This document shows, piece by piece, positions 17,894 to 51,580 of a DNA stretch of 64,000 nt. This stretch comes from Acidobacteriota bacterium (GTDB lineage Bacteria; Acidobacteriota; Polarisedimenticolia; Polarisedimenticolales; DASRJG01), in NCBI GenBank assembly GCA_031393555.1, contig JANMVW010000171.1:3334-67333 (forward strand), written 5' to 3'. A program made the position numbers and the translations under genes. The first letter of the stretch is position 1; each line of letters opens with the position of its first letter. The notes under the pieces were generated by a model. That model was not told the DNA's origin, searched no databases, and saw only the letters and a program-made list of their open reading frames with translations.

Positions 17894-17894
17894 T

Positions 17895-20095
<2,201 letters not shown>

Positions 20096-20099
<4 letters not shown>

Positions 20100-24254: not shown

Positions 24255-25169
24255 GTGACTGCGTGCCGCCTATCGCGCCATGGCGCGGCGTTTTTCGCGT
24301 TCGTCCTCATAGTGGCCCCCGGTTTTGCGCAGTACGGTTCCTCCGGTCCCGAGGTCCAGCCGAACAACTACCCGCCGGCGCTTCCCGCGCGCCGGGGACA
24401 AGGGCCGATGCTCGTTTTCGAGCGACTGGGAGAGATTGCGCTCCCGGGACCGCTCGGGGAGCGGCCCGGTTTTCTGTCCGACGGTGTGGTCGTGTTCCCC
24501 GTCGAGGGCGGTTGGGCGCGCGTGGCTCCCGAGACCAACGCCACGCCTTCGATCGTCCCTTCGGCCGAGTTGCCGGACAGACCGGAGTGGATTCCCTCCT
24601 CCGATGGAAAACGCCGTTACCGGACGACGGCGGAAGGACTGGTCGAAGCGCAACACCGATCCCGGACGAGGAAGAAATGGATCTCGTCGTGGAGGATCGT
24701 CGCGCCGAACTCGATCATGGCGCCGCCCATCCTGCTTGGCCCGCGCCTGTGCTACGCCGGGCTCGACGATCGCGTAACGTGCGTGCGCGCGAGCAACGGA
24801 CACCGGGTCTGGGCGGTTGATCTCGGGGACCGCTTGTCGCGGGGCTTGGCCTGCTGGCCGGCCTGCGGGACGGGGCCGATCGATGGGGAGATCCTGCTCG
24901 TCGTGCCGGATGACGGAGCCTCCTTGGTCGCCCTCGACGCGTACGACGGCCGCCGCGTCGCGACCTTCGACCTCCCCGCCCCGCTGCGTTTCGCCTCGTC
25001 GGCGCTCGTGGTATCGGGAGATCGGATCGCGATTGCACGCAAAGGATACGACGCACGGGATGCCGCCCTCTTGCTCTTCAGGTTGACGCCCGCGCCGCCG
25101 GCCACGCCGGCGTCCCAGCTACCCTATAATGACGGCTCCCCCGCACGGACCCGACCTTCTGGGAGGTGA
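24255..25169 (+). CDS. Secreted hypothetical protein, possible PQQ-like/BamB-like beta-propeller repeats
   Basis: The signal peptide is VTACRLSRHGAAFFAFVLIVAPGFAQ. Repeats resemble ...DDRVTCVRASNGHRVWAVDLGD... and ...ASLVALDAYDGRRVATFDLP. The start (GTG 24255) is inferred. The stop lies inside the RBS region of the next gene. Confidence 0.4.
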   Translation: MTACRLSRHGAAFFAFVLIVAPGFAQYGSSGPEVQPNNYPPALPARRGQGPMLVFERLGEIALPGPLGERPGFLSDGVVVFPVEGGWARVAPETNATPSIVPSAELPDRPEWIPSSDGKRRYRTTAEGLVEAQHRSRTRKKWISSWRIVAPNSIMAPPILLGPRLCYAGLDDRVTCVRASNGHRVWAVDLGDRLSRGLACWPACGTGPIDGEILLVVPDDGASLVALDAYDGRRVATFDLPAPLRFASSALVVSGDRIAIARKGYDARDAALLLFRLTPAPPATPASQLPYNDGSPARTRPSGR

Positions 25170-25172
25170 TTT

Positions 25173-27278
25173 GTGGCCCCGAAAACCGAGAGTCCGAGCC
25201 TCAGGGGGCTCGATCGAAAAGCGTTGCTCGAGATGTACCGATCGATCGTCTTGTCTCGCAAAGTCGACGACAGGGAGATCCAGCTCAAGCGCCAGAACAA
25301 GATCTATTTCCAGATCAACGGCGTGGGACACGAGGCCGTGGGCGCGGCGATGGGCCAGGTATTCCGCCCCGGCCACGACTGGTTCTTTTTCTACTACCGC
25401 GACCGCGCCGCTTCCCTGGCCCTGGGGATTACGCCGCTCGAGATGTTCTTGCAGGCCGTCGGCGCCAAGGACGAACCTCAAAGCGGCGCCCGACAGATGC
25501 CCTCTCACTTCTCGTCCCCGAAACTCCACATCGCCAACACGTCGTCGCCGACGGGAACGCAGTTTCTCCAGGCGTGCGGATGCGCCGAGGCGGGACTCTA
25601 CGCCGCCGAACGCGGCGAGCTTCCGGGAGTTCCTTTTGAGGGCGACGAGGTCGTCGTCGTCACGACGGGCGACGGCACGACGAGCGAGGGCGAATTCTGG
25701 GAGTCCGTCAACACGGCCTGCAACCGGAAGCTCCCGGTCGTCTACGTCGTCGAAGACAACGGCTACGCGATCTCGGTTCCCGTCGAGGTCAACACGGCCG
25801 GCGGAAGCATCTCGAAGCTGCTGGGTTCGTTTCCGAACCTCTTGATCCGCGAGGTGGACGGCTGCGATCCGCTCGCCACCGTCGAGGCGTATCGCGCCGC
25901 CGCTGCGCACACGCGGGCCCGCAAGGGGCCGGCGCTCGTGCACGCGCACGTCGTCCGGCCCTACAGTCATTCTCTGTCCGACGACGAGACCAACTACAAG
26001 ACGAAAGAAGAGCGTACGGCGGAAAGCAAGCGCGATCCCGTCGAGACGTTTCGCGCCACCCTCGTGCGGGAAGGAATCGTCGAACTGTCCGTCCTCGCGG
26101 CGATCGATGCGCAACTCGACGAAGAGGTCGCCCGAGCCGCAGACCTGGCGCTCGCGGCGCCCCGCCCCGAGCCGGCCTCCGCTCTGGAGTTCGTCTACTC
26201 CCCCACCGTCGACCCGACCTCCTCGACGTTTGCCTCTGAACCTTCCGCCGTGGGCCAACCGACGACGATGGTCGATCTGCTGAACGCGTGCATGAAAGAC
26301 GAGATGCGCCGCGATCCCCGGATCGTCGTCTTCGGACAGGACGTTGCCGATGCCTCCCGCGACGAGGCACTCTCGAAGGTCAAGGGAAAGGGCGGCGTCT
26401 TCAAGGTGACGTGGGGCCTGCAGAAGGAATTCGGGGGTACGCGCGTTTTCAATACGCCGCTCGCGGAGGCGAACATTCTCGGGCGGGCGATCGGGATGGC
26501 GCTTCGAGGCTTGAAGCCCGTCGTGGAAATCCAGTTCTTCGACTACATCTGGCCCGCGTACATGCAAATTCGAGACGAGCTGGTCACGATGAGATGGCGC
26601 TCGGGGAACGCATTTTCCTGTCCGCTCGTCATCCGGGTCGCGTACGGCGGCTACATCACCGGGGGCGCGATCTACCACAGCCAAACCGGGGCGGCGCTGT
26701 TCACCGCGAACCCCGGGTTGCGTGTCGTTTGCCCGTCGAACGCTACGGACGCGAACGGGCTGCTGAGGACGGCGATCCGCTGCGACGACCCCGTGCTCTT
26801 TCTCGAGCACAAACACCTGTACCGCCAGACCTACAACAAGGGCGCGAACCCCGGTCCGGACTACATGATCCCGTTCGGGAAAGCCTCGCTCGTCCGCGAG
26901 GGACGGGACGTGACCGTCGTGACCTACGGCGCTACGGTTCATCGCGCGCTTCAGGCCGCGAGGATCGCCGAGGAACGCGGCCTCTCGCTGGAGGTCCTCG
27001 ACCTGCGCTCGTTGAATCCGATTGATTGGGATGCCATCGCGGCCTCCGTGAGAAAAACGAGCAAGGTGCTCGTGCTCACCGAGGATTCCAGGTCTTGGGG
27101 GTACGGCGCAGAAATCGCGGCGCGCATCGGCGAGGAGCTTTACGCCGATCTCGACGGCCCCGTGCGCCGCCTCGCGGCGACCGACACGTTCGTCGCGTAC
27201 GCTCCGGAACTCGAGGATTTCATCCTCCCGCAGACTGCGGACATTCTCAAAGCCGTCGAGGAACTCGCCGCGTTTTAG
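25173..27278 (+). CDS. 2-oxoacid dehydrogenase E1 component, fused alpha/beta subunits (TPP-dependent)
   Basis: The protein is 701 aa. The alpha part contains the TPP-binding region (...[22 protein letters not shown]...). The beta part contains [38 protein letters not shown]. The start is GTG with a GGGAGGTG RBS. Confidence 0.8.
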
Positions 27279-27280
27279 CC

Positions 27281-28528
27281 TCACCACCGCCGAGGCGCAT
27301 CGCGCACGACACGAACGGTGTCTCGCGCGATGAGGAGTTCCTCGTTCGTCGGGATGACCCAGGCGTCGAGTTTCGATCCGGGGGCGGCGATGCGAGCGGT
27401 CTCCCCGGGTGCGACCAACCGGTTTCGGTCCCTGTCGATGACGAGACCAAGGTGGTCGAGATCGGCGCCGATCCGCTCGCGAATGGCCGCCGAGTTCTCT
27501 CCGATCCCCCCCGTGAAGACGAGGGCCTGCGTGCCCGGGTACGTCGCGTAGTAGGCGCCGATGTACTTCTTCACGCGCAAGCAGAACATCTCGATGGCCA
27601 GGTGGGCTCGCCGATCCCCGTTTTCGGCCTCCTCCGCGAGAAGATCGCGCATGTCGCCGGTCAGCCCGGAGATTCCCAAGAGCCCCGATTGCTTGTTGAG
27701 CATGGCCTCGATCTCGTGGAGTCCCATCCCCTCCTTATGCGCGAGGAACTCGAGAATCGACGGGTCGAGATCTCCGGAGCGGGTTCCCATCAGGAGTCCC
27801 TCGACCGGAGTGAATCCCATCGACGTGTCGACCGAAGCCCCGGCTCGAATGGCGCACGCCGAGCAACCCATTCCCAGATGAAGCGTGATCAGGTTGACCG
27901 CTTCGCGCGGAATCCCGTGGATCGTGCGGTACCGGTACGCCACGTAGCGATGCGACGTCCCGTGAAAGCCGTACCGGCGGATCCTGTGCCGGCGGTAGAG
28001 CGAGTACGGGATCCCGTAAAGGAACGAGGTCTCGGGCATCTCGGAATGAAACGCCGTGTCGAACACGGCGACCTGCGGAATTCCGGATCCCAGGACATCC
28101 GCAGCCGCGCGCACGCCTCGCAGGTTGGCGGGGTTGTGAAGCGGGGCCAACTCGATGCACTCTTCGATCCCCTCGATCACCGCGGGTTCGATCCGCACGG
28201 AGCGTTTGAACCGTTCGCCGCCGTGCACGACGCGGTGCCCCACCGCGTGGAGATCCGCCAGGGACCGGATGCCGGGGATCCTGGCGTCGGCGGAGACGAT
28301 CCAGCGAAGGATCCGGTCGATGGCGCCACGATGGTCGCGGATCGGAGCATCCTCGATCACCTTTTGCCCACCTTCGGCCTGGAAGGTGATGAGGGCGAGA
28401 CTCCCGATCCGTTCGATCACACCGCGCGCGAGCCGGCGATCGGTGTCTTTTTCGATGAGGTCGAGGTCGGTCTCGACGATCTGGAACTTGATCGAGGAAG
28501 AGCCGCAATTGAGCACGAGGACGTTCAT
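27281..28528 (-). CDS. ackA: Acetate kinase
   Basis: MNVLVLNCGSSSIKFQIV..., HRVVHGG, YGFHGTSHRYV and IGENS motifs are present. Confidence 0.95.
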   Translation of the reverse strand: MNVLVLNCGSSSIKFQIVETDLDLIEKDTDRRLARGVIERIGSLALITFQAEGGQKVIEDAPIRDHRGAIDRILRWIVSADARIPGIRSLADLHAVGHRVVHGGERFKRSVRIEPAVIEGIEECIELAPLHNPANLRGVRAAADVLGSGIPQVAVFDTAFHSEMPETSFLYGIPYSLYRRHRIRRYGFHGTSHRYVAYRYRTIHGIPREAVNLITLHLGMGCSACAIRAGASVDTSMGFTPVEGLLMGTRSGDLDPSILEFLAHKEGMGLHEIEAMLNKQSGLLGISGLTGDMRDLLAEEAENGDRRAHLAIEMFCLRVKKYIGAYYATYPGTQALVFTGGIGENSAAIRERIGADLDHLGLVIDRDRNRLVAPGETARIAAPGSKLDAWVIPTNEELLIARDTVRVVRDAPRRW

Positions 28529-35627: not shown

Positions 35628-36836
35628 ATGGCCGCCACGACCGTGTTGTCCCATCGTGCACGCATCATGCCCGCGAGCCCGATCCGGCGGCTCGCACCGC
35701 TAGCCGCCAGAGCCGCCGCCGCCGGAAAGACCCTTTACGCGCTGAACATCGGGCAACCCGACATCGAGACTCCTCGGGCCATCCTGGATCGACTGCGCGG
35801 ATACGACGCGAGGCTCATCCCCTACGGACCTTCCCAGGGACTCCCCGAGTTCATCGACGCGCTGTGCTTCTATTACAAGAGCGTCGGTCTCGTGGTCACC
35901 CCCGCCGAGGTCTTCGTGACCACCGCGGGAAGCGAGGCGATCCTGTTCACGCTCGGCGCGATCTGCGACCCCGGTGACGAGGTTCTCGTCTTCGAGCCGT
36001 TCTACACGAACTACAACGGGTTCGCGGCGATGGTCGGAGTCTTGCCCGTCCCCGTGACGACGCGCGCGGAGGACGGCTACCACCTGCCCGATCGGTCGGC
36101 GATCGAAGCCAAGATCGGACCCCGGACACGCGGCATCCTGATCTGCTCGCCCAACAACCCGACCGGCACCGTCTACACCGACGCCGAGATGGCTCTGCTC
36201 GCTTCGATCTGCCGTGAGCGAGGCCTCTACCTCATCGCCGATGAGGTCTACCGTGAGTTCGTCTACGACGGGGCGAAGCACCACTCGGCCTTGACCCTCG
36301 AGGGACTCGACGATCAGGTGATCGTCGTGGATAGCGTCTCGAAGCGCTACTCGCTCTGCGGCGTCCGCATCGGAAACGTGGTGACACGCAATCGCGAACT
36401 GATGGACGCATTGTTGCGCTTCGGTCAAGCGCGCCTCTGCCCGCCGACGTTGGGCCAATACGCCTGCACGGCGCTGACCGAGGTCCCGAAAGACTACATC
36501 GCCGGAGTGATCGCCGAGTACGAGAAACGGCGCGACGTCGTATTCGAGGCGCTCGATGCCCTTCCCGGCGTGCTGGTCCGGAAACCCGAGGGAGCGTTCT
36601 ATCTCTGCGCCCGGATTCCCGTGGACGACGCCAACAGGTTCGCGGAATTTCTCGTGCGCGATTTCGACTTGGACGGCGAAACCGTGACGATCGCCCCGGC
36701 CGATGGGTTTTACGCGACCCCCGGCCTCGGGCGAGACGAGGTCCGCATCGCCTACGTCCTCGATGAGACCCGGCTCCGCCGCGCCATGACGATTTTCGCT
36801 AAGGCGCTCGAGGTGTACCCGGGACGGACGCTCTAG
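35628..36836 (+). CDS. Class I/II pyridoxal-phosphate aminotransferase (aspartate/aromatic type)
   Basis: MPASPIRRLAPLA, LNIGQPD, PNNPTG and the SVSKRYSLCGVRIG PLP-Lys motif are present. A GGAGGA RBS lies 7 nt before ATG 35628. Confidence 0.85.
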   Translation: MAATTVLSHRARIMPASPIRRLAPLAARAAAAGKTLYALNIGQPDIETPRAILDRLRGYDARLIPYGPSQGLPEFIDALCFYYKSVGLVVTPAEVFVTTAGSEAILFTLGAICDPGDEVLVFEPFYTNYNGFAAMVGVLPVPVTTRAEDGYHLPDRSAIEAKIGPRTRGILICSPNNPTGTVYTDAEMALLASICRERGLYLIADEVYREFVYDGAKHHSALTLEGLDDQVIVVDSVSKRYSLCGVRIGNVVTRNRELMDALLRFGQARLCPPTLGQYACTALTEVPKDYIAGVIAEYEKRRDVVFEALDALPGVLVRKPEGAFYLCARIPVDDANRFAEFLVRDFDLDGETVTIAPADGFYATPGLGRDEVRIAYVLDETRLRRAMTIFAKALEVYPGRTL

Positions 36837-37798
36837 CGCCCGGAATCGCGGTGCGCGCGCTCCAACCCGACGGCGGCGGCAAGGAGGGGTACGTTGATCT
36901 CGTGGTGGCCGGTGAGCGAAAAGCTCCTCCCCCTGCCAAGCGTCGGCCTCCGGAGGACATTTTCGTCGGTGCGGTAATGACGGATCATGTCCAAGTTGGC
37001 GGTCGCGAAGCCCGAGAGCGCGTGCCCGAGGTTCTCGGCGATCGACACCGCCTTCAGGAAAACCTCGGGGAGTTGTACCGCCGATCCCAGGTTGATCCAA
37101 ACGCCCCCCGAGAGCGACGAGACGATCGTGACGAGCTTGCGGAAGTCGGTGAAGGTGGCCGCGCCGATCGCGGCGCCGTCGGCGGACGGGTGCTGGTGAA
37201 CGATGTCGCTTCCGATCGCGACGTGCACCGTCACCGGAACGCCGAGTTCGAACGCACGGGCGAGCAAGCTCGCCGCGCGGTGCGGCATCGCGGCAGCAAC
37301 GATGCGTCTCCCGAGGACTTCGCCGAAACCGAGCCCCGACGCGCTAGCCTCTTTCGCCGCCTCGTTCAACTCGCGCCCGGTCTCGTCCGCCATCCCATAG
37401 CGTCCCTCGTGCAGCCCGCGGCCCACGTCCTCGGATGTCGCCCCGATCGCCGCGATCTCCCAGTCGTGGATCGCGCCCGCTCCGGTGAGAGCGAGCGCGG
37501 AAATCGTCCCCTCCTCCATCATGCCGATGAGGACCGGCGCCAGACCGACCTTGACCACGTGGGCTCCCGCCGCCACCACGACCGGATGGTCCTCGGCGCG
37601 CGCCTGGACGATCGCCGCGGCGAGCTCCCTCAAGACCTTCACCGCGAGCACGTCAGGCAAGCCGTCGAGGAAATCACCCAGCGACGACGAAGCCGCGACC
37701 GGTCGGGCGAACTCGTCGACACGGACTTTGTTCGACCGCGAGGCCAGCGGGTAGGTCGTCACGCGCGACAAGTCGGCCGGGAGCACGGGCTTCGGCAT
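36833..37798 (-). CDS. Deoxyhypusine-synthase-like (DHS-like NAD-binding fold) family protein, function unknown
   Basis: The only support is loose pattern resemblance (…ISALALTGAGAIHDWEIA…, …VPVTVHVAIGSDIVHQHP…). The assignment is tentative. Confidence 0.4.
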   Translation of the reverse strand: MPKPVLPADLSRVTTYPLASRSNKVRVDEFARPVAASSSLGDFLDGLPDVLAVKVLRELAAAIVQARAEDHPVVVAAGAHVVKVGLAPVLIGMMEEGTISALALTGAGAIHDWEIAAIGATSEDVGRGLHEGRYGMADETGRELNEAAKEASASGLGFGEVLGRRIVAAAMPHRAASLLARAFELGVPVTVHVAIGSDIVHQHPSADGAAIGAATFTDFRKLVTIVSSLSGGVWINLGSAVQLPEVFLKAVSIAENLGHALSGFATANLDMIRHYRTDENVLRRPTLGRGRSFSLTGHHEINVPLLAAAVGLERAHRDSGR

Positions 37799-37841: not shown

Positions 37842-38873
37842 CTAGGCGCGCGCAGGCCCGACCACCGTGCGATCGACCGCCTCCGCGATGCGCCGCACGC
37901 CGCGCATCATCGCCTCGAAGCCCTCGATCGTCAGACTCTGACGGCCGTCCGATACCGCGCGCTCCGGGTCGTCGTGAACCTCGACCAGCAGGCCGTCGGC
38001 GCCTGCGGCGACGGCGGCGCGTGAAAGCGCGCCCACCCATTCCCGCTTTCCGGCCGCGTGCGAAGGGTCGACGATGACCGGCAGATGGCTGCGCTCGCGC
38101 AGCACCGGAACGGCGCTGACATCGAGCGTGTTTCGTGTGGCCGTCTCAAAGGTTCGAATTCCGCGCTCGCAGAGGATGACACGGGGGTTGCCGTGGGACA
38201 CGACGTACTCGGCGGCGTTCAGGAACTCGTCGATCGTCGCCATGTGGCTTCGCTTGATAAGAACTGGTTTGGGCTGCCGGCCGCAGGCCGCCAGCAAACG
38301 AAAGTTCTGCATGCTGCGCGCGCCGATTTGCAGCACGTCGACATAGCGCGCGCAAAGCTCCACGTCCTCCGGTCCCACGACCTCGGAGACGACGGGTAGG
38401 CCCGTCTCCTCGCCTGCCGCGGCGAGCAGGCGCAGCCCATCCTCGCCCATCCCTTGGAAACCATACGGCGAGGTCCGGGGCTTGAAGGCCCCGCCCCGCA
38501 GCATCCGCGCTCCCGACGCGGCGACGCTCCGCGCGATCGAACGAATTTGCGCCTCGGACTCGACCGAACAGGGCCCCGCGATCACGACGATCTCGTCACC
38601 CCCGATCGTGACCCCCGACGCCCTCACGCGGGTCGTTTCAGGATGGTACGCGCGCGAGACGAGCGCGTAGGGTGGTACGTCGTGCCGTGTTTCGCGGACT
38701 CCGGGCATCGTCGCGAGACGTTCAGCGAGGCCTGGCGGGGCGGCGCCGAGAACGCCCACGATCGTCTCGTCGCCCCGTACACCCACGGTGACTCGATAGC
38801 CGTCAGACTCGAGGAGGCGGACGACGTCGGCCTTCTGCTTGAGGGTGCATTCCCGACTGAGGATCGCGATCAT
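37842..38873 (-). CDS. aroF: 3-deoxy-7-phosphoheptulonate (DAHP) synthase, type I-beta with N-terminal ferredoxin-like regulatory domain
   Basis: [37 protein letters not shown] and [13 protein letters not shown] are present. ATG 38873 overlaps the trpA stop (ATGA). The ORF-track 5' extension was discarded. Confidence 0.9.
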
Positions 38874-39673
38874 GGACACGTTCCTGCGGACCTCTGCCGG
38901 TCTCCAAGGAGCCCGGCGAGGAAAACCCCCGGACTCTCGCCCCGTTCGATCGCTGCGATCAGCGCCGAACCGACCACGACGCCATCGGCCGGAGGGACCA
39001 ACGCCGCAACGTCTTCGCGGGTCCGTACTCCGAATCCGGCGAGAATTGGACGCGCGGTGGCCGCACGCACGCGCTCGAGGTAGGCGGTGAAATCCGTCCA
39101 TGCGTCGATCCGGCCCCCGGTTGTACCCGTGACGGTCACGGCGTAAACGAACCCGTCGCTCTCGGCGCCGATGCGGTCGAGGCGCGGTACCGGGGTCGCC
39201 GGCGTCACCATCTGGACGAATGCGAGCCCAGCCGCGCGGAACGTCGGCCGGAGGCGCCCCTGCTCCTCGAGGGGCAGATCCGGCACAATGAATCCAGACA
39301 CGCCCGTCGCCGCCGCATCGCGTGCCAGGCGCGTTAGGCCGTACGCCAGAAGCGGGTTCAGGTAGCTCATGATGACGACCGGCGTCGAGAACGACGGGAG
39401 CGAGGCGGCGAGCGCCTGAAGTGTCCAATCCAACGTCGTCCCATCCAGGAGCGCGACGCGACTCGCGCGCTGAATCGTGACGCCGTCCGCCATCGGATCG
39501 GAAAAAGGGACGCCGACCTCGAGGACGTCAGCAGCGGCGGACGCCGCGCGCAGCAGACCGGGAAACGTGGCGCGCGACGGAAAGCCCGCGGTTAGGTATG
39601 CGGCGACCGCCGGTCGCCCGGCGTTTCTTGCCTTCAAGATGGCTGAGGCGATGCGATTTCCCCCTTGGGTCAT
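38870..39673 (-). CDS. trpA: Tryptophan synthase alpha chain
   Basis: [32 protein letters not shown] and [10 protein letters not shown] are present. ATG 39673 overlaps the trpB stop. Confidence 0.9.
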
Positions 39674-40857
39674 CGGCCCGTCTCCATGAGCGTGGGCAGG
39701 TCTTTGTCCCCCCGCCCCGAGAGTCCCAAAAGGATCAGTGCGCCGGGCCGCATCGACGCGAGCCGTTTTGCGCCCGCGAGCGCGTGCGCGGATTCGAGAG
39801 CCGGGAGGATGCCTTCGAGCGTGCAACACGCGCTAAACGCCGCGAGCGCTTGGTCATCACTCACCGGCTCGTAGTGGGCGCGGCCCGAACTCGCGAGAAA
39901 CGCGTGCTCGGGCCCCACTCCCGGGTAGTCGAGGCCGGCCGCGATCGAATGCGTGTCCCGTATTTGCCCATCCGCGTCCTGAAGGAGCAGCGAGAGCGCA
40001 CCGTGCAGAACGCCCGGCGTCCCGCGCGCGATCGTTGCGGCATGATCCCCGGTGGCGCTGCCGCGCCCGCCCGCCTCGAACCCATGCAACGCCACGCCGT
40101 CGTCGTCGATAAACGCGTGAAACAGCCCGATTGCGTTGGATCCACCACCCACGCACGCGGCTACGGCATCGGGGAGCGTGCCCCGTGCCGTTTGGAGCTG
40201 CTCACGCGCCTCGCGGCCGATCACCGCTTGAAACGTGCGCACCAAGAAGGGATACGGGTGTGGCCCGACCGCCGATCCGATGAGGTAGTAGGTTCCTTCG
40301 GGATCCGACACCCAGTCTCTCAGCGCCTCGTCGATTGCGGCACGCAGCGTGGCATCTCCCGAGGCCACGGGGATCAACTCCGCGCCGAAGCGTCGAATGC
40401 GTTCCGCGTTGGGTGCCTGGCGGACCACATCCCGGGCTCCCATATAAACGCGGCAGGCCAGCCCGAGGCGCGCGCACGCCGCGGCAACGGCGACCCCATG
40501 CTGCCCCGCCCCCGTCTCGGCGACGACGCGCGTGGCGCCGAGTCGTTTCGCCAGCATCGCCTGGCCCAGAGCGTTATTGATCTTGTGCGCACCGGTATGC
40601 GCGAGATCCTCGCGCTTCAGCCAGATCTCGGCGTCCCAGGCTCGCGATAAGCGTCGCGCGGGGCACAACGGGGTGGGCCGACCGACCCATTCGGCCAGAT
40701 CCCTGTCCAGCGCGGAAATGAACGACCGATCGGACAGAGCGTCCTGAGCGACGCTCGTCAGGCGCGCGAGTGCCGTCATCAGTGTTTCGGGAACAAATCT
40801 CCCTCCGAAAGATCCGAATCGACCTTCGGCGTCGGGTACGACCGCTGGACTCGTCAT
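39670..40857 (-). CDS. trpB: Tryptophan synthase beta chain
   Basis: GRFGSFGGRFVPETLM, LKREDLAHTGAHKINN (PLP Lys) and GGGSNAIG are present. Confidence 0.95.
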   Translation of the reverse strand: MTSPAVVPDAEGRFGSFGGRFVPETLMTALARLTSVAQDALSDRSFISALDRDLAEWVGRPTPLCPARRLSRAWDAEIWLKREDLAHTGAHKINNALGQAMLAKRLGATRVVAETGAGQHGVAVAAACARLGLACRVYMGARDVVRQAPNAERIRRFGAELIPVASGDATLRAAIDEALRDWVSDPEGTYYLIGSAVGPHPYPFLVRTFQAVIGREAREQLQTARGTLPDAVAACVGGGSNAIGLFHAFIDDDGVALHGFEAGGRGSATGDHAATIARGTPGVLHGALSLLLQDADGQIRDTHSIAAGLDYPGVGPEHAFLASSGRAHYEPVSDDQALAAFSACCTLEGILPALESAHALAGAKRLASMRPGALILLGLSGRGDKDLPTLMETGR

Positions 40858-41684
40858 CGCGCCACCTCGCGTTGCGCCGCGGCATCTCGGCCGGACGCGA
40901 TCATCTTCGAAAGCAGGGGGACCGGATCGTCGGCACGCATCAGCGCCGCGCCGACCAGCGCCACGCTGTAGCCGAGTCGGGCGACGCGGGCTGCGTCCTT
41001 TCGTGTTGCGATCCCGCTCTCTGCGACGAGACGTAAACCAGCGGGAGCGTGACGGGCGAGCGATGCATGCCGGCTCCGATCGATCGCAAGCGTCGCAAGA
41101 TCTCGGGCGTTCACGCCGAGAAGCCCGGCCCCACCCGCGTCATCGAGTGCGCCAACCGCGCGGTCGAGATCGTCGAGGTCGAACGCTTCGACCAAAACAA
41201 ACAGCTTCATCGACTCGGCGGTGGCGATCATTTCCGCCAGGAGGGCGGCATCCAAAAGACGAGCGATCAATAAAACACCGGAGGCCCCGTGGGCTCCCGC
41301 CTCGACCACCTGATACGGTTCGACGAGAAAGTCCTTGCGCATCGTGGGGAGCCCGCATTGTCCTGAGATGTCGGTGAGCGCCTCGAGCGAGCCCGAAAAC
41401 GCGGTGGGCTCGGTCACAACGGAGACCGCGCAGGCACCGCCGCTCGCGTAGGCGGCGCCGGACTCCGATGCGTCGCGGGAGCCCTTCGCGAGCATTTGTC
41501 CCAGCGACGGGCTGCGCGGCTTGAACTCGGCGAACACGTCGAAGCCCGACGCGTGGTGACGCAGAGACTTCGGGGCAGGGCGCATACTCGCGCGCCGCAA
41601 GAGCTCCGCTTCACCGATGCGCGCCTTGGCTGAGCGCACACGCCGTCGGCTGGCCGCAACCATGCCGGCGAGAAAGTCAGACAT
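40854..41684 (-). CDS. trpC: Indole-3-glycerol phosphate synthase (monofunctional)
   Basis: FAEFKPRSPS, AVSVVTEPTAFSGS, PTMRKDFLVEPYQV, LVEAFD, GVNARDL and ESGI are present. ATG 41684 overlaps the trpD end by 8 nt. Confidence 0.85.
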   Translation of the reverse strand: MSDFLAGMVAASRRRVRSAKARIGEAELLRRASMRPAPKSLRHHASGFDVFAEFKPRSPSLGQMLAKGSRDASESGAAYASGGACAVSVVTEPTAFSGSLEALTDISGQCGLPTMRKDFLVEPYQVVEAGAHGASGVLLIARLLDAALLAEMIATAESMKLFVLVEAFDLDDLDRAVGALDDAGGAGLLGVNARDLATLAIDRSRHASLARHAPAGLRLVAESGIATRKDAARVARLGYSVALVGAALMRADDPVPLLSKMIASGRDAAAQREVAR

Positions 41685-42708
41685 GGGTTTGTCCCGTGGC
41701 CCGTGCCCCGAACGCCGCGACCGAGGCGAGCAGCCGGGAAGCCCTTCCGTCATCGATCACGGCCGCCGCAACGACGATTCCTTCACTCATGTCGCGGCAT
41801 CGCCCGGACACCTCGAGCGCGAGCGCCGCGCCGAGCACCAAGGCGTCACGATGCGCGCCTCGCGCCCCGTGGAAAACATCGGAAAGCGCACGGGCATTCG
41901 TCGAGGCGTCGCCGCCCCGGAGGTCTTCTTGTTGGCAGCGCGCGAGCCCGAAACGGAGCGGATCACGCACTTCGGATACGACGCGGTTTGGGACCACCTC
42001 GAAAATGTGGAATGGTCCGATCGGGGTCGGCTCATCCCATCCCTCGCTTCCGTGAATGACGAAGGCGCGTTCGATCGAAAGGCCGGACAACGCGTGCGCC
42101 ATCGCACGGGCTGTCTGGAGAGAAGATGCGCCGATCACCGCGAACGGCGGGTCGGCCGGATTGCACAACGGGCCCAACAAGTTGAACACCGTGCGCGTGC
42201 CGAGCGCGCGACGCAACGGGCCCATCCCACGAAGCGCTTCGTGGAAGTACGGCGCGTGAAGGAACGTGAAACCGGTTGCCGCGAGGAGGGCGCGCGCGTC
42301 GTCGAGCGCCAGAGGGAGCGTCACGCCCAGCGCCGCCAGGACATCCGCGCTTCCCGATCGCGACGAAACCGCTCCACCGCCATGCTTGACCACGGGGGCT
42401 CCCGCAGCAGCCGCGAGAAGGGCAGCGCCTGTTGAGAGATTGAAGCTGCAGGCGCCGTCTCCACCGGTCCCCACGATGTCGACGAGGCCCGTACTCGCAC
42501 CGAACTCGCAAGGCAGCGCACGGGCCCGCATCGCACGGACCAATCCACGAATTTCCGTCGCGGTCTCCCCTTTTGCGCGCAGCGCCGCGAGGAGCGCGCC
42601 GACGACGGCCGCAGGTGTGGACGCCTCGGTGAGAACCGCGAAGAGATCTTCGGCCTCGCGCGGCCCGAGATCGCCGCCTTCCAAGAGGTGTTCCAGCATC
42701 GTCGTCAT
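41677..42708 (-). CDS. trpD: Anthranilate phosphoribosyltransferase
   Basis: LAALRAKGETATEIRG, VDIVGTGGDGACSFNLSTGAA, HGGGAVSSRSGSADVL and NLLGPLCNP are present. ATG 42708 overlaps the trpG stop. Confidence 0.9.
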   Translation of the reverse strand: MTTMLEHLLEGGDLGPREAEDLFAVLTEASTPAAVVGALLAALRAKGETATEIRGLVRAMRARALPCEFGASTGLVDIVGTGGDGACSFNLSTGAALLAAAAGAPVVKHGGGAVSSRSGSADVLAALGVTLPLALDDARALLAATGFTFLHAPYFHEALRGMGPLRRALGTRTVFNLLGPLCNPADPPFAVIGASSLQTARAMAHALSGLSIERAFVIHGSEGWDEPTPIGPFHIFEVVPNRVVSEVRDPLRFGLARCQQEDLRGGDASTNARALSDVFHGARGAHRDALVLGAALALEVSGRCRDMSEGIVVAAAVIDDGRASRLLASVAAFGARATGQTHV

Positions 42709-43286
42709 GACGCCTCGCTTTCGAGGAAGTTGGCGAGAAGCCGCTCGCCGCACGGAGTCAGCACGCTTTCGGGATGAAACTGAACGCCCTCGACCGGCAG
42801 GCGCCTGTGACGGAGGCCCATCACCTCGCCTTGCGAGGTGTAGGCGCACACCGCGAGATCCCGGGGGAGCGTCGCATCGTCCACGCAGAGCGAGTGATAT
42901 CGCCCCGCGGGAAACGGATTCGGGAGACCGGTATACAACGTGCGCCCGTCGTGGTAGACCGGCGATGCCTTGCCGTGAACGAGTCGTGGCGAAGCGACAA
43001 CGCGGCCACCGAGCACCAGAGCGAGCGCCTGGTGTCCAAGACACACGCCGAGAACGGGCACGCGTGGTAGCAGTGTTTCCAAGATCGAGAGCATTGCCCC
43101 GGCGTCTTCCGGGCGCCCGGGCCCCGGCGAGATCACGAGGTGGGTCGGCGCCAAATCGCGCGCCTCACGCGCCCCGATGACGTCGTTGCGGCGGACGTCC
43201 ACCTCGGCTCCCAACGCAAGAAATGCCTGGGCGAGATTCCAGGTGAAGGAGTCGTAGTTGTCGACGAGCAGGAGGTGCGCGTTCAC
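42705..43286 (-). CDS. trpG: Anthranilate synthase component II (glutamine amidotransferase)
   Basis: LLVDNYDSFTWNL, PVLGVCLGHQAL (catalytic Cys) and GVQFHPES are present. The GTG start overlaps the trpE stop (GTGA). Confidence 0.9.
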   Translation of the reverse strand: MNAHLLLVDNYDSFTWNLAQAFLALGAEVDVRRNDVIGAREARDLAPTHLVISPGPGRPEDAGAMLSILETLLPRVPVLGVCLGHQALALVLGGRVVASPRLVHGKASPVYHDGRTLYTGLPNPFPAGRYHSLCVDDATLPRDLAVCAYTSQGEVMGLRHRRLPVEGVQFHPESVLTPCGERLLANFLESEAS

Positions 43287-44662
43287 GATGCGCCCGCGGC
43301 GGCTATCGCCGCGCGCAGAGCCGCCGCCTTCGCCAGGACTTCGTCATGCTCGCGTTCGGGGTCGCTGTCGGCGACGATTCCGGCGCCAGCCTGAAACGAG
43401 ACTCGGCCCTCGGAGAAGACGAGCGTCCGGATGGCGAGCGCCTGGTCCATGACGCCGCCGTGTCCGAAGTAACCGACGCAGCCGGCGTAAAACCCGCGCG
43501 CCGAAGGCTCGATCGCGTCGATCAGCTCCATCGCGCGCACTTTCGGAGCTCCCGTGACCGTGCCGGCGGGAAATGCCGCGGCGAAGAGATCGAATGCGTC
43601 GCGCCCCGGCGCGAGGATGCCGCGCACGCCGGAGACCATGTGCATCACGTGGCTGTAGCGCTCGATCGATCGCGAGGGACGAACGGCAATCGAACCCGGG
43701 ACGGCGACCTTCCCCAAATCGTTCCGGGCGAGGTCGACGAGCATCACGTGCTCGGCCGCTTCCTTGGGGTCCGCGAGAAGCTCGCGCTCGAAAGCGGCGT
43801 CTTCCTGCTCGTCTCCGCCCCTCGGGCGTGTACCCGCGATGGGCCGGAGCGTCGCATCGCGTCCTTGGAGCTTGACCAGCGCTTCGGGCGAGCTCCCCAC
43901 GAGCTCGGTGCCCCCGAGACGAACGAAAAACGTATAGGGCGAGGGGTTGAGGATTCGTAGCGCACGGTAGACGGAGAACGCGTCGCCCTCGAACTCCGCC
44001 TCAAAACGCACCGACAGGACGAGTTGAAAGACCTCTCCCGCGCGGATCGCCTCCTTGCCGCGCAGGACGGCCGCGACGAACGCCCCGCGGTCGAGACTTG
44101 CGCGGGCGCACCCATCCGATCGTGAGGGCGGCTGCGGCGAAATGCCCGCGTGCAGCGCCCGCACAACCTGGGTGCGTAGATTGCTGCGCTCGGACGCTGT
44201 TCCGGCGTGCAAGAGCGCCGCATTGCGGGTCACGTGGTCGAAAATCAGAACGCTTCGTGGCGCGATGAACAGCGCGTCGGGCTCTGTCCCGCTGCGAGCG
44301 GCGTTGCAGGGAAGGCTCTCGAGCCTCCGCGTGGCGTCGAATCCAATCGCACCGACGAGACCGCCCGCAAACGGCAAACCGGAGGAGCCGGGGTCGAGCT
44401 GGGGCGCGGCCGCGAGCGCGGCGCGCAACGGGGCCAGCAGCCCTCGCGGGTCGGCTCGCGAACGACCTCCCCGCGTCTCGGGGATCGACGCCGCGACTCG
44501 GATTTCGTCGGCGTCGCCGAAGCCCAGAAACGAATAGCGTCCCACGCGCTCACCCCCCTCGACGCTTTCAAGGAGGAAACGCGGCGCGAACGACTCGAGC
44601 TTCAGGAACGCCGACACGGGCGTGTCCAGATCCGCCGGAATGTCAAAAGGCGTGTTGTCCAC
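43283..44662 (-). CDS. trpE: Anthranilate synthase component I
   Basis: LLESVEGG, a PIAGTRPRG-type region, HVMLVDLARNDLG, GAPKVRAMELI and GAGIVADSDPEREHDE are present. The start was re-called to GTG 44662, 8 nt after the GGAGGA RBS. The ORF-track start (44707) lies inside the attenuator hairpin. Confidence 0.9.
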   Translation of the reverse strand: MDNTPFDIPADLDTPVSAFLKLESFAPRFLLESVEGGERVGRYSFLGFGDADEIRVAASIPETRGGRSRADPRGLLAPLRAALAAAPQLDPGSSGLPFAGGLVGAIGFDATRRLESLPCNAARSGTEPDALFIAPRSVLIFDHVTRNAALLHAGTASERSNLRTQVVRALHAGISPQPPSRSDGCARASLDRGAFVAAVLRGKEAIRAGEVFQLVLSVRFEAEFEGDAFSVYRALRILNPSPYTFFVRLGGTELVGSSPEALVKLQGRDATLRPIAGTRPRGGDEQEDAAFERELLADPKEAAEHVMLVDLARNDLGKVAVPGSIAVRPSRSIERYSHVMHMVSGVRGILAPGRDAFDLFAAAFPAGTVTGAPKVRAMELIDAIEPSARGFYAGCVGYFGHGGVMDQALAIRTLVFSEGRVSFQAGAGIVADSDPEREHDEVLAKAAALRAAIAAAGAS

Positions 44663-44683
44663 GGCGTGATTCCTCCACGAGCC

Positions 44684-44719
44684 AAAAAAAAGGCCCATCT
44701 CCCGCAAAGGAGATGGGCC
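44684..44719 (-). terminator. Intrinsic terminator (attenuator) immediately upstream of the trpE RBS
   Basis: The minus strand reads GGCCCATCTCC-TTTGCG-GGAGATGGGCC followed by TTTTTTTT. That is a perfect 11-bp stem, a 6-nt loop and a U8 tract. Confidence 0.75.
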
Positions 44720-44743
44720 GGTTGAATCGTCAGATTCGAGACG

Positions 44744-44797
44744 CTAGTCCGCGGCCGCCACCTCCCAGGGGTTGACGCACCACCACCACGCACCCAT
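44744..44797 (-). CDS. trpL: trp operon leader peptide (17 aa: MGAWWWCVNPWEVAAAD; possibly 32 aa from in-frame ATG 44842)
   Basis: The minus strand reads ATG GGT GCG TGG TGG TGG TGC GTC AAC CCC TGG GAG GTG GCG GCC GCG GAC TAG. There are three consecutive Trp codons plus a fourth. The ORF ends 24 nt before the terminator stem. Confidence 0.65.
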   Translation of the reverse strand: MGAWWWCVNPWEVAAAD

Positions 44798-44852
44798 TCG
44801 GGTCGCGACGGCTAACGTGTTCGGGGCGATGCTGCGCGTCATCACGGGGCCT

Positions 44853-44881
44853 TTTGTACCGCGAAGACAGGGCTTACACAA
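44853..44881 (-). promoter_or_regulatory. Possible promoter for the trp leader/operon
   Basis: The minus strand reads TTGTGT (44881-44876), a 17-nt spacer, then TACAAA (44858-44853). The match to consensus is weak and the call is speculative. Confidence 0.25.
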
Positions 44882-44898
44882 GGAGAATCTGGGAATCT

Positions 44899-45687
44899 CT
44901 AGCGCCCCGTAAACTTCGGGGGACGCCTCTCGACGTAGGCGGCCAGCCCCTCGCGCGCATCGTCGGATTCGAAGAGACGCTGCTGCAACTCGCGCTCCAG
45001 GGCCAATCCCTCGCCGAAACTCGCCTCGAGGCCGGACACCACGGCGCGCTTGATGAACCCCACGGCCTTGGACGCGCGCGACGGGGGCAGGAACGAAGCG
45101 GCGTACTCCTCCACGCGGACGTCAAACGAGTCGGGCTCGAACACCTCGTGGACGAGACCGAGGTCCTTGGCTTCCTCGAACGAGAAGGTGCGGCCCGTCG
45201 CCATCAGCTCGAACGCCCGCGAGCGTCCGAGAGCGCGCGCGAGGCGCTGCGTCCCGCCCGTTCCGGGGAGAACCCCGAGGGTCACCTCGGGAAGGCCCAT
45301 CTTGCCTCCCCCCCTTTTCGCAATCCGTAAATCGGCGGCGAGCGCGATCTCGAGGCCGCCCCCGACGCAATGGCCGTTCAAGGCGGCGATCACGACTTTA
45401 GGCGTCTGTTCGAGGCGATTCAACGTCTCGTTGGCATGGAGGCAGAAGTAGTACTTGAAGCCGGGATCGGCCTCGGTCAGCATCTTGATATCGGCCCCGG
45501 CGCAAAAGAACTTCTCGCCCGCGCCGCGCACGACGATGACGTGGACGGTTCCGTCCATGCGCGCTTCGAGGATCGCCGCATCGAGTTCACGCATCATCGG
45601 GTAGCTGTAGGTATTGGCGGGTGGATCGCACAGCGTGATCCAACCGACCCCCCCGCGTGCTTCGTAACGGATTTTGTCGCTGATCAT
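44899..45687 (-). CDS. Enoyl-CoA hydratase/isomerase (crotonase) family protein
   Basis: VIVVRGAGEKFFCAGADIK, ALNGHCVGGGLEIALAADLRIA and the GLPEVTLGVLPGTGGTQRL oxyanion-hole motifs are present. ATG 45687 follows a GAGGGGAG RBS. Confidence 0.85.
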   Translation of the reverse strand: MISDKIRYEARGGVGWITLCDPPANTYSYPMMRELDAAILEARMDGTVHVIVVRGAGEKFFCAGADIKMLTEADPGFKYYFCLHANETLNRLEQTPKVVIAALNGHCVGGGLEIALAADLRIAKRGGGKMGLPEVTLGVLPGTGGTQRLARALGRSRAFELMATGRTFSFEEAKDLGLVHEVFEPDSFDVRVEEYAASFLPPSRASKAVGFIKRAVVSGLEASFGEGLALERELQQRLFESDDAREGLAAYVERRPPKFTGR

Positions 45688-45697
45688 GAAGCTCCCC

Positions 45698-46756
45698 TCA
45701 CGCGGCTTTCCGCAGGCGGCGGACGATCGCATCCGCGGCCGCTCGCGCGCCGAGAGATCCGCCGACGTCGGCCGTGCATTCTCTCGCTTCGAGCGCCGCA
45801 ACGACGGCACCTTCGATCGCCCGGGCCGCTTCCGGCAGGCCGGTATGCTCGAGCATCATCCCCGCGGTCAGAATCGCGCCGAACGGGTTCGCGGTGTCGG
45901 TGCCCGCGTACTTGGGGGCGCTTCCGTGCACCGGCTCGAACATGGAGGTCTTCCCGGGGTAGAGGTTTCCCGACGCGGCCATGCCCAGCCCTCCCTGGAG
46001 CGCGGCGCCCAGGTCGGTGACGATGTCGCCGAACATGTTGCAGGTGACGATGACCTCGAACTGTCGGGGATCCTTGATCAACTGCATCGTCAACGCGTCG
46101 ACGTACAGGTGGTTCGCCCGGATCGCGGGATACTCCGCGGCGACCTCCGCGAAGACGCGCTGCCAGATGTCGTGGGCGTGACGGAGCGCGTTCGACTTGT
46201 CGGACATGGTCACTTTCTTCCGCCCGCTGGCGGCGGCGAACGCAAAGGCGGCACGGATGATTCGCTCGACCCCTTTGCGCGTGTTCACGTCCTCCTGGAT
46301 TCCGATCTCGTCGGGCGTCCCTTTCTTGAAGATCCCGCCCATGCCGGCGTACGCGCCCTCCGTGTTCTCCCGAAAAACGACGAAATCGATGTCCTTCGCG
46401 GTGTAGTTTCGCAAAGGGCAGAGCCGCTCGTTGAGGCAGCGCACCGGGCGCACGTTGGCGTAGAGATCCATCTTGAACCGCGTGCCGAGGAGGATGTCGG
46501 CGGCGTGCTTCATGTCCGGCACGCGCGGGTCGCCGAACGCGCCCATGAAGATCGCATCGAAGCCCGACCAGACCGCGAGCGCCCCGTCGGGAAGCGTCTC
46601 CCCCGTCTTGAGATAACGATCGGCGCCGTAGTCGAAGTGCTCGAGGGTCAACCCGAAACCGAAGACCTTCGACGCCGCCTCGAGAACCTTGACGGCTTCC
46701 TTCGTCACGTCGATACCGATGCCGTCACCTGGAACCATCGCGTAGCGTCGATCCAT
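45698..46756 (-). CDS. Isopropylmalate/tartrate dehydrogenase family oxidative decarboxylase
   Basis: PGDGIGIDV, FRENTEGAYAG, SDKSNAL, NMFGDIVTDLGAALQGGLGMAASGN and FEPVHGSAPK are present. The N-terminal region looks closest to the tartrate/D-malate dehydrogenase subgroup, but specificity cannot be decided from sequence. Confidence 0.8.
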   Translation of the reverse strand: MDRRYAMVPGDGIGIDVTKEAVKVLEAASKVFGFGLTLEHFDYGADRYLKTGETLPDGALAVWSGFDAIFMGAFGDPRVPDMKHAADILLGTRFKMDLYANVRPVRCLNERLCPLRNYTAKDIDFVVFRENTEGAYAGMGGIFKKGTPDEIGIQEDVNTRKGVERIIRAAFAFAAASGRKKVTMSDKSNALRHAHDIWQRVFAEVAAEYPAIRANHLYVDALTMQLIKDPRQFEVIVTCNMFGDIVTDLGAALQGGLGMAASGNLYPGKTSMFEPVHGSAPKYAGTDTANPFGAILTAGMMLEHTGLPEAARAIEGAVVAALEARECTADVGGSLGARAAADAIVRRLRKAA

Positions 46757-50638: not shown

Positions 50639-51580
50639 TTAAACGAACAGCGAGCTCACGGAGGAGTTGCTGTGGATTCGGGCGATCGCCTCTCCCAGGA
50701 GGCTCGCCACGGAAAGAACGGTGATCTTGGGATTTTGCGCCTTCGCGCTGGACAGCGGGATCGTGTCCGTCACGATGACGTGCTCGAGCTCCGAGTGTTC
50801 TATGCGCTCCAGCGCGGGGCCGGAGAGGACGGGGTGGGTGAAGCAGGCCAGGACCCGGGACGCGCCCTTGTCGCGGAGCGCCTTGACCGCCCCCACGAGC
50901 GTTCCCGCCGTATCGACGATGTCGTCGACGATCATGCACGTGCGTCCCGCAACTTCACCGATCACGTTCATCGTCTCCGCGACGTTGGTGTCGACGCGGC
51001 GCTTGTCGACGATCACGAGCCCGGCCTCGAGTTTTTTTGCGAAGGCGCGAGCACGCTCGACGCCGCCCGCATCCGGGGAGACGATCGTGAGGTTTTGGAA
51101 ACGCTGCCGCTCGACCCAGTCCAGGAGCACCGGGGCGGCGAAAAGATGGTCGACCGGAAGGTCAAAAAACCCCTGGATGGCGGGCGCGTGCAACTCCATC
51201 GCCAGCAACCGGTCGACGCCCGCAGCGGTGAGCAGGTCGGCGACCAGCCGCGCCGAGATCGGAACACGAGGCTTGTCCTTGCGATCCTGCCGCGCGTAGC
51301 CGTAGTACGGGATCACCGCCGTGATGCGCGCGGCCGAGGAACGCTTCATCGCGTCAACCGCGATGAGGAGTTCCATGAGATTCTCGTTGACGGGATGACA
51401 GGTCGGTTGAATCACGAAGACGTCTGTGCCCCGGACGTTTTCGAGGATCTGGCAGTAGACCTCTCCGTCGGAAAACCTCGAGAGCTTCCATTCGCCCATG
51501 GGGATGTGCAGGTAGTGGCAGATCGCGCGCGCGAGGGCCGGGTTCCCGTTTCCCGAAAAGACCTTCATCTCGTTCTTCAT
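50639..51580 (-). CDS. prs: Ribose-phosphate pyrophosphokinase
   Basis: KVFSGNGNPALA, YYGYARQDRK, DLHAPAIQGFFD-type and IVDDIVDTAGT motifs are present. ATG 51580 overlaps the ispE stop. Confidence 0.95.
   Translation of the reverse strand: MKNEMKVFSGNGNPALARAICHYLHIPMGEWKLSRFSDGEVYCQILENVRGTDVFVIQPTCHPVNENLMELLIAVDAMKRSSAARITAVIPYYGYARQDRKDKPRVPISARLVADLLTAAGVDRLLAMELHAPAIQGFFDLPVDHLFAAPVLLDWVERQRFQNLTIVSPDAGGVERARAFAKKLEAGLVIVDKRRVDTNVAETMNVIGEVAGRTCMIVDDIVDTAGTLVGAVKALRDKGASRVLACFTHPVLSGPALERIEHSELEHVIVTDTIPLSSAKAQNPKITVLSVASLLGEAIARIHSNSSVSSLFV

Follow-up and report, generated by a model that had tools for sequence, protein, structure and literature searches.

A putative Trp attenuator upstream of trpE

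In silico analysis of a 64,000-nucleotide (nt) stretch of DNA from an Acidobacteriota bacterium (GenBank assembly GCA_031393555.1, contig JANMVW010000171.1; here called the window) revealed a leader region on the minus strand, directly upstream of trpE, that very probably acts as a classical Trp-responsive, ribosome-mediated attenuator. Judging from the sequence, it would sense charged tRNA-Trp and control an operon of trpEGDCBA and a gene for 3-deoxy-D-arabino-heptulosonate 7-phosphate (DAHP) synthase. A ribosome-mediated trp attenuator had been proposed here in an earlier note on this DNA, and we found the Trp codon run, the terminator and the antiterminator segment of that proposal conserved upstream of trpE in about 150 relatives. 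All parts listed in the note are present, but a promoter-like box and a hairpin between regions 1 and 2 of the leader (the 1:2 hairpin) had been overlooked. The elements of the leader, including its open reading frame (ORF), are as follows.

44876-44881, minus strand: -35-like hexamer TTGTGT (TTGCGY in relatives); CTTG.G is invariant in ten close sequences
44853-44858, minus strand: -10-like hexamer TACAAA (TA(C/G)AA(C/A/G) in relatives); GTA.AA is invariant in ten close sequences
44744-44842, minus strand: leader ORF of 32 codons plus TAG, MTRSIAPNTLAVATRMGAWWWCVNPWEVAAAD and stop, from the sequence reading and the ORFs of relatives
44780-44788, minus strand: putative regulatory codons TGG TGG TGG (Trp19-21, TGGTGGTGG), unique in the window and nearly invariant in alignments A1-A4
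44769-44781, minus strand: region 1, predicted 5' side of the 1:2 hairpin, which begins with the two final bases of Trp21 and continues into codons C-V-N-P, placed by local folding and alignment
44753-44766, minus strand: region 2, GGGAGGTGGCGGCC, covering codons W-E-V-A-A and predicted to pair with region 1 or region 3, from duplex energy and conserved pairing
44708-44719, minus strand: region 3, GGCCCATCTCCT, serving as the 5' arm of the terminator or, alternatively, as the 3' side of the antiterminator; its CCC core is invariant in 135 sequences
44692-44703, minus strand: region 4, GGGAGATGGGCC, 3' arm of the terminator; the terminator pairs are 95-97% paired
44684-44691, minus strand: U8 tract of the intrinsic terminator; the T-run is kept in relatives
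44671-44676, minus strand: Shine-Dalgarno sequence GGAGGA of trpE; GGAG is invariant in close relatives

The earlier note had read a short ORF with three consecutive Trp codons from ATG 44797 to TAG 44744 and had pointed to a further ATG at 44842 in the same frame, all of which we recovered; the TAG stop occupies 44746-44744. With both strands of the 64-kb window counted, TGGTGGTGG was found a single time, and 0.14 occurrences would be expected. Downstream of the ORF, a terminator scan of positions 44000-45500 returned one site only, a hairpin followed by T8 at 44719-44684. The hairpin, GGCCCATCTCC(T)-TTGC-(G)GGAGATGGGCC (44719-44692), has a 4-nt loop and a computed energy of -23.3 kcal/mol. 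It lies, together with T8, where the note had placed it, and its stem, given there as 11 bp, reaches 12 bp with the closing U-G pair.

Among possible partners of the terminator 5' arm (44719-44708), the segment 44766/44765-44753 forms the best duplex, with an energy of -19.4 kcal/mol. Shuffled sequences gave a mean of -11.8 kcal/mol, and 1 of 100 shuffles was equally good. This agrees with the candidate antiterminator that had been suggested at 44765-44753, and its pairing is conserved in relatives (see below). Region 2 can also pair upstream, in a 1:2 hairpin of 44781-44769 with 44762-44753 (-10.2 kcal/mol). Another candidate for region 1, GCCGUCGC (44808-44801) pairing with GGUGGCGGC, appeared in one fold and was discarded; its conservation among relatives is patchy.

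Conservation of the leader among relatives

Relatives of the TrpE protein were collected by scans of species-representative genomes and of Joint Genome Institute (JGI) metagenomes. The matches listed in these scans have mostly about 60% TrpE identity, and the 155 upstream regions taken from relatives are a sample. Among the species representatives, the best matches listed (about 60%) belong to metagenome-assembled genomes (MAGs) labelled as Steroidobacteraceae/Gammaproteobacteria, Rhodospirillales, Gemmatimonadota and Acidimicrobiia, and the JGI scan gave a similar set. Closer relatives, with 68-84% TrpE identity, were identified on metagenome contigs by protein search; nine of them were used, along with near-identical strains. 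Of the named proteins, the one nearest to the TrpE of the window (68% identity) belongs to a Candidatus Polarisedimenticolaceae MAG of the Acidobacteriota, in keeping with an acidobacterial origin of the window.

An ATG-started short ORF with at least two consecutive Trp codons was found upstream of trpE in 145 of the 155 relatives (56-84% TrpE identity), compared with 1 of 155 reverse complements and 2 of 155 shuffled controls. The triple TGG is present in 120 of the 155 upstream regions, and a strong hairpin with a T-run follows the leader in 144 of the 147 relatives that have one. Both the Trp-Trp ORF and the terminator were absent from TrpE relatives at 46-49% identity (Nitrospirota and others).

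Furthermore, we built a covariance model (R1; 134 positions) on the leaders of 67 distant relatives; neither the window nor any of its close relatives was included. The model matched the window at 44682-44803 on the minus strand with 43.6 bits and E = 9e-10, over model positions 1-134 of 134, and this was its only significant match in the window. R1 also found all nine close relatives, whereas a search of six TrpE loci at greater distance (a sample of L072-L080) gave no significant match.

Pairing was counted in three alignments, one of the family (A1, 135 leaders), one of window-like leaders (A2, 28 leaders) and one of ten close sequences (A3). The pairing of regions 3 and 4 (3:4), i.e., the terminator stem, is kept in 97.2% of cells in the 135 aligned leaders, with two-sided changes in 6 of 9 pairs, compared with 32-60% in slid registers. 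In the 28 window-like leaders, the corresponding value is 95.4%, and 5 of 11 pairs show a compensatory change. The alignment of related genomes that the earlier note had suggested as a check hence came out in its favor for both parts, with the TGG run conserved and compensatory changes in the terminator stem. The leader is no isolated oddity of this one genome but a member of a family found in MAGs of several phyla.

For the pairing of regions 2 and 3 (2:3), i.e., the antiterminator, we determined the best partner of the terminator 5' arm between the Trp run and the terminator in 137 distinct leaders. The distance from the last Trp codon to the start of this partner has a median of 11 nt (5th-95th percentile, 9-14 nt; about 12-13 nt in the window), and the duplex has a median energy of -15.9 kcal/mol versus -9.4 kcal/mol for shuffled sequences. 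In 120 of the 137 leaders, it is better than shuffles (at most 5 of 100 as good). Since the MAFFT alignment of the family mixes two distal antiterminator registers, GGAGGTGG and GGAG-TGGG with a bulged U, only the five proximal pairs were counted across the family, and leaders of the window-like type were aligned separately. With this restriction, 2:3 is kept in 92.5% of cells in A1, and three pairs have two-sided changes, such as one that is CG in 92 sequences but GC in 10. The pairing is likewise kept in 90.5% of cells in A2 and 92.5% in A3, compared with 30-78% in slid registers.

The 1:2 pairing was evaluated in the ten close sequences, where 85.8% of cells are paired and three pairs have one compensatory change each. 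RNAalifold predicts part of this helix, and the 1:2 fold of close relatives mostly has -14 to -18 kcal/mol (range, -8.1 to -18.0 kcal/mol). We regard the 1:2 helix as plausible and modestly supported.

The leaders come in two layouts (L001-L163; e.g., L058:3836-3971 and L027:3845-3977), one short and one long. In the short layout (...WWWRTS and stop), the stop lies 9 nt past the Trp run and the region-2 box just beyond it; in the long layout, the box is inside the ORF. The box itself (CGGAGTGGGC or GGGAGGTGGC) is thus past the stop in short leaders and within the ORF in long ones, where the codons around it differ (P-E-W-A, A-E-V-G or W-E-V-A). Because it lies within the ORF or behind the stop depending on the lineage, the box appears to be constrained as RNA and not as peptide.

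Across the leader family, the three pairing segments are conserved as the triple GGAGGTGG / CCCAYCTCC / GGAGRTGGG. This conservation of regions 2-4 in sequence, beyond structure and across phyla, would also be expected if the leader RNA of about 160 nt, the 32-amino-acid (aa) peptide or both acted in trans in addition to the action in cis, for which there is an alphaproteobacterial precedent in rnTrpL and peTrpL of Sinorhizobium meliloti (PMC6614838, PMC7298713, bioRxiv 10.1101/606483). We consider such an additional role unlikely. The simplest explanation for conservation at the sequence level is the three-way pairing, in which every base in regions 2 and 3 must match two partners, and the N-terminal half of the leader peptide varies even between near-identical strains, as described in the following section. 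No target of a trans action was found, although none was searched for.

Start of the leader ORF and promoter-like box

Homologous leader ORFs encode 21-32 aa, and in all ten closest sequences the start is an ATG aligned with 44842. Leader ORFs of close relatives include MNRGNVSFTSAVATPSGAWWWCVNLLEVTAAV, MTRRILSIASPVATPSGAWWWCVSLREVAAAV and MTTSIRYAWWWYASLREVATD, each followed by a stop, and gene finders called the 32-aa ORF in L164, L165, L167, L168 and L174. The conserved start is therefore ATG 44842, giving a 32-aa peptide, and not ATG 44797, which had been preferred before the ten-sequence alignment and the gene calls in relatives were at hand. An attenuator of the same kind that is translated from the internal ATG 44797, with a peptide of 17 aa, or from both ATGs is quite improbable. 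ATG 44797 is in frame and 9 nt ahead of the Trp run, and both ATGs give identical Trp codons and the identical stop. However, seven of the nine close relatives have TCG or CCG at this position; the in-frame internal ATGs of L167 and L084 are located elsewhere, and ATG 44797 is confined to the window's own strain group. ATG 44842, on the other hand, is aligned in 10 of 10 sequences at a fixed distance of 9-10 nt from the -10-like box. No clear Shine-Dalgarno sequence precedes either ATG. Initiation at an internal ATG is unlikely under these conditions, but a leaderless message could be translated from an ATG close to its 5' end.

In the near-identical strain L174, the region has five differences over 240 nt, all within or just before the first nine codons, and four of them change an amino acid (T2K, I5M, N8H and T9A). 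From codon 10 to trpE, near-identical strains are identical except for one extra T in the U tract of two further strains. The N terminus of the leader peptide is thus free to vary, and the RNA from the Trp codons onward is not. A fourth Trp codon (44767-44765), which the earlier note had counted along with the three, is unconserved and replaced by Arg or Leu in relatives; it appears to be incidental, a by-product of the region-2 sequence.

The ten close sequences share CTTGCGY, a 17-nt spacer of variable sequence, GTA(C/G)AA(C/A/G), a gap of 9-10 nt and the ATG, with a gap of 10 nt between TACAAA and ATG 44842 in the window. In the larger set, 103 of 137 leaders have a sigma-70-like pair of hexamers (at least 8 of 12 matches) with the -10 element ending 6-10 nt, mostly 9 nt, before the ATG. 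Since a conserved -10-like box 9-10 nt ahead of the ATG leaves space for just a few nt of 5' untranslated region (UTR), translation of the leader ORF probably begins close to the 5' end of a nearly leaderless message; the ORF has no Shine-Dalgarno sequence.

Proposed mechanism and folding energetics

From these elements, we infer the transcription start, the translation of the leader ORF, the ribosome footprints and the response to Trp. Transcription would begin a few nt ahead of ATG 44842, as placed by the promoter-like box, and the 32-codon ORF would be read as a nearly leaderless message. When charged tRNA-Trp is scarce, the ribosome would stall on codons 19-21 (44788-44780), covering region 1 and leaving region 2 (44766-44753) free. 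Region 2 could then pair with region 3 as soon as the latter is made, the terminator would be blocked, and the polymerase would enter trpE. With ample charged tRNA-Trp, the ribosome would pass through region 2 to the TAG and cover about 44761-44734; regions 3 and 4 would form the 12-bp hairpin with U8, and transcription would stop 22 nt before trpE. In the absence of a ribosome, the 1:2 hairpin (-10 kcal/mol) may hold region 2, which would again favor termination.

A ribosome has a footprint of about 28 nt. Using this value, the computed geometry is consistent with both states. With Trp19-21 in the A site, the ribosome would cover the RNA to about 44776-44770, i.e., all of region 1 as computed and none of region 2, and at the TAG it would cover about 44761-44734, i.e., most of region 2. 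The alternative structures were also compared by folding, a check suggested in the earlier note. With a stalled ribosome and the polymerase past region 3, the minimum-energy structure is 2:3 (-26.4 kcal/mol).

Several observations weigh against this mechanism. The whole 246-nt region folds no better than shuffled sequences (z = -0.19), so the case for an attenuator depends on the specific elements and their conservation. Once region 4 is made, the terminator state is more stable at equilibrium (-37.3 versus -31.7 kcal/mol); the switch must therefore be kinetic, as it is in E. coli. With no ribosome and region 3 made, the computed minimum-energy structure still contains 2:3. The predicted behavior of untranslated transcripts is thus uncertain, as the 1:2 hairpin favors termination and the computed optimum favors 2:3. 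Furthermore, the 1:2 hairpin of the window is weaker than that of most close relatives, whose hairpins gain stability from an added CCUCC:GGAGG pairing; the window has a C-A mismatch there, at a position where 8 of 10 sequences have U-A. The antiterminator has only GC/GU changes in A2 and A3, without two-sided compensation, so the support in these two alignments comes from conserved pairing and position and not from covariation. Finally, a promoter scan made no call at the two hexamers, which are weak matches to the sigma-70 consensus.

Regions 2 and 4 resemble strong Shine-Dalgarno sequences (GGAGGUG and GGAGAUG). Region 3 resembles the 16S anti-Shine-Dalgarno sequence (CCCAUCUCC; CCCACCUCC in relatives), with CCCA(C/U)CUCC compared to CACCUCC at the 16S 3' end. 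This likeness may simply follow from the pairing of G-rich with C-rich segments. It is doubtful, and in our view improbable, that region 3 has a direct competitor for region 2 in the tail of 16S rRNA, which would act by holding or pausing the ribosome on region 2 or by loading a 30S subunit there. If this were true, the antiterminator would mimic the mRNA-binding helix of the ribosome, which would explain a sequence frozen across phyla, and the near-leaderless start would replace the pause hairpin that couples the first ribosome to the polymerase.

The trp operon and its surroundings

The genes downstream of the leader, which had been annotated as trpEGDCBA plus DAHP synthase behind the ribosome binding site GGAGGA and the start codon GTG 44662, were confirmed with all of these assignments.

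43283-44662, minus strand: trpE, 459 aa, GTG start at 44662, first gene of the operon (Pfam Chorismate_bind and PF04715)
37842-43286, minus strand: trpG, trpD, trpC, trpB, trpA and DAHP synthase (Pfam hits and gene calls on L081)

Gene calls for trpE have the same length on L081, an identical contig, and on L174. Neighboring genes of the operon overlap by 4 nt, and trpD and trpC overlap by 8 nt. No trpF was found among the operon genes by Pfam or gene calls, and trpC encodes indole-3-glycerol phosphate synthase only. The DAHP synthase of the operon has an N-terminal ferredoxin-like domain; that the first enzyme of the common aromatic pathway would be under a Trp attenuator is notable.

Directly upstream of the leader and on the same strand (44899-46756, minus) are genes for an isocitrate/isopropylmalate dehydrogenase-family protein (Iso_dh) and an enoyl-CoA hydratase, an arrangement that is retained in L164, L167, L168, L169 and L174. 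There is no terminator between these genes and the promoter-like box, and read-through from them would reach the attenuator terminator.

It is very improbable that the hairpin with U8 is a mere terminator of this upstream operon next to a Trp-rich ORF that arose by chance. The upstream genes do share the strand of the leader, and 180 nt without another terminator separate their end from the hairpin. However, the leader and its terminator go with trpE where the upstream gene is a different one or is on the opposite strand (L166, L170, L171 and L172), and the U tract is only 22 nt from the trpE start, which leaves no space for a separate trp promoter. We disfavor an upstream-operon terminator for these two reasons; the frequency of the Trp-Trp ORF in relatives relative to the one or two hits in the controls and the covariance-model match, which spans the Trp codons through the U tract, also speak against it.

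Elsewhere in the window, a single ORF of 2221 aa (461-7126, minus) combines, in one frame, a TamB domain (aa 1136-1475) with POTRA repeats at about aa 1738-1813 and with an Omp85 barrel at aa 1918-2221. Since TamB is normally encoded apart from TamA, an Omp85 protein, the ORF looks like a TamB-Omp85 fusion, but it could also be a mechanical ORF across two genes. ARAGORN called a tRNA-Arg(ACG) at 51244-51336 (minus) with 93 nt, which is long for a tRNA, and the Rfam tRNA model gave nothing at gathering score anywhere in the window. As a 93-nt call by ARAGORN only, without an Rfam match, this tRNA is doubtful or unusual. Pfam gave no match for three ORFs, at 17637-20162 (plus, 841 aa), 25119-27287 (minus, 722 aa) and 36833-37798 (minus, 321 aa). 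The last of these is located directly downstream of the DAHP synthase gene. Some of the three may be spurious ORFs on the wrong strand of a GC-rich sequence.

Relation to known attenuators

Searches against Rfam 15, including Trp_leader (RF00513) and T-box, gave no relevant match (43500-46000 at E <= 10; whole window at gathering score), and none was found in seven relatives at E up to 1. Weak matches in the region to suhB/mmgR and to toxic small RNAs were set aside as terminator look-alikes only. Although T-box and TRAP control trp genes in Firmicutes (PMC3064811), termination governed by a tRNA or a protein instead of a translating ribosome is hardly credible here. Neither T-box nor another relevant Rfam family was matched, even with E values of up to 10 allowed, and the leader contains no run of (G/U)AG repeats at 2-3 nt spacing, of which a TRAP-binding leader would have 9-11. 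In addition, neither mechanism has a use for a conserved run of Trp codons whose distance to the antiterminator is fixed.

The leader resembles trpL of E. coli, as described by the model of Yanofsky, in its consecutive Trp codons in a short ORF, four segments with predicted 1:2, 2:3 and 3:4 pairings, the intrinsic terminator just before trpE and the proposed kinetic switch. In both, the segment assigned to region 1 begins at or after the Trp codons. The covariance model R1 also aligns the attenuator of E. coli K-12 trpL in register, although as a weak match (20.5 bits, E = 5.5e-6 in a 1.3-kb search), and many relatives of the window end in ...WW(W)RTS and stop, sharing TGGTGGCGCACTTCCTGA with E. 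coli trpL. There are also clear differences. The leader of the window has 32 codons and three consecutive Trp codons, compared with 14 and two in trpL; its region 2 is inside the ORF; and its stem sequences differ (GGGAGGTGG / CCCATCTCC / GGAGATGGG). In E. coli, an untranslated 5' leader with a Shine-Dalgarno sequence lies ahead of trpL, whereas the leader ORF of the window has no Shine-Dalgarno sequence and appears to start only a few nt from the predicted transcript start. Taken from sequence comparison, the leader family would be the same kind of device as enterobacterial trpL and is perhaps distantly related to it.

Outside Proteobacteria and Actinobacteria, a Trp leader peptide upstream of trpE is also present in Deinococcus deserti. 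For the trpEGD leader peptide of that species, RNA sequencing mapped the transcript start 1 nt before the start codon (PMC4007540), which agrees with the near-leaderless arrangement proposed here; in the window, the corresponding start is predicted from the promoter-like box only. Classical trp attenuators have been described in Corynebacterium and Streptomyces, where complementary triples common to antiterminator and terminator are found over large distances (PMC1262725), and Sinorhizobium trpL is an alphaproteobacterial attenuator of trpE(G) (PMC6614838, bioRxiv 10.1101/606483). UGG codons in twos or threes, triples, and GC-rich terminators that end in U tracts are likewise found in these actinobacterial and alphaproteobacterial attenuators, but the box of the Actinobacteria, gGCC-rGCy-GGCC, differs from that of the family studied here (given above). 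According to a survey from 2010, hardly any of the attenuators predicted in Acidobacteria had an assigned function (PMC2965389), and the papers that we searched contained no description of such a leader for Acidobacteriota, Gemmatimonadota or Acidimicrobiia.

The attenuator proposed here is of an ordinary kind and involves no new mechanism. It belongs to a widespread leader family that Rfam 15 does not contain. This family is now searchable by a covariance model and has about 137 distinct members in our sample, from MAGs labelled as Acidobacteriota, Gemmatimonadota, Acidimicrobiia, Steroidobacteraceae and Rhodospirillales. Annotation could improve accordingly, as the 32-aa ORF is now called a hypothetical protein. 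The natural variants, with region 2 past the stop or inside the ORF, are usable for testing which geometries an attenuator tolerates, and the family adds further cases of apparently leaderless leader peptides. For the organism itself, the leader very probably represents a case of classical Trp attenuation in an uncultured lineage.

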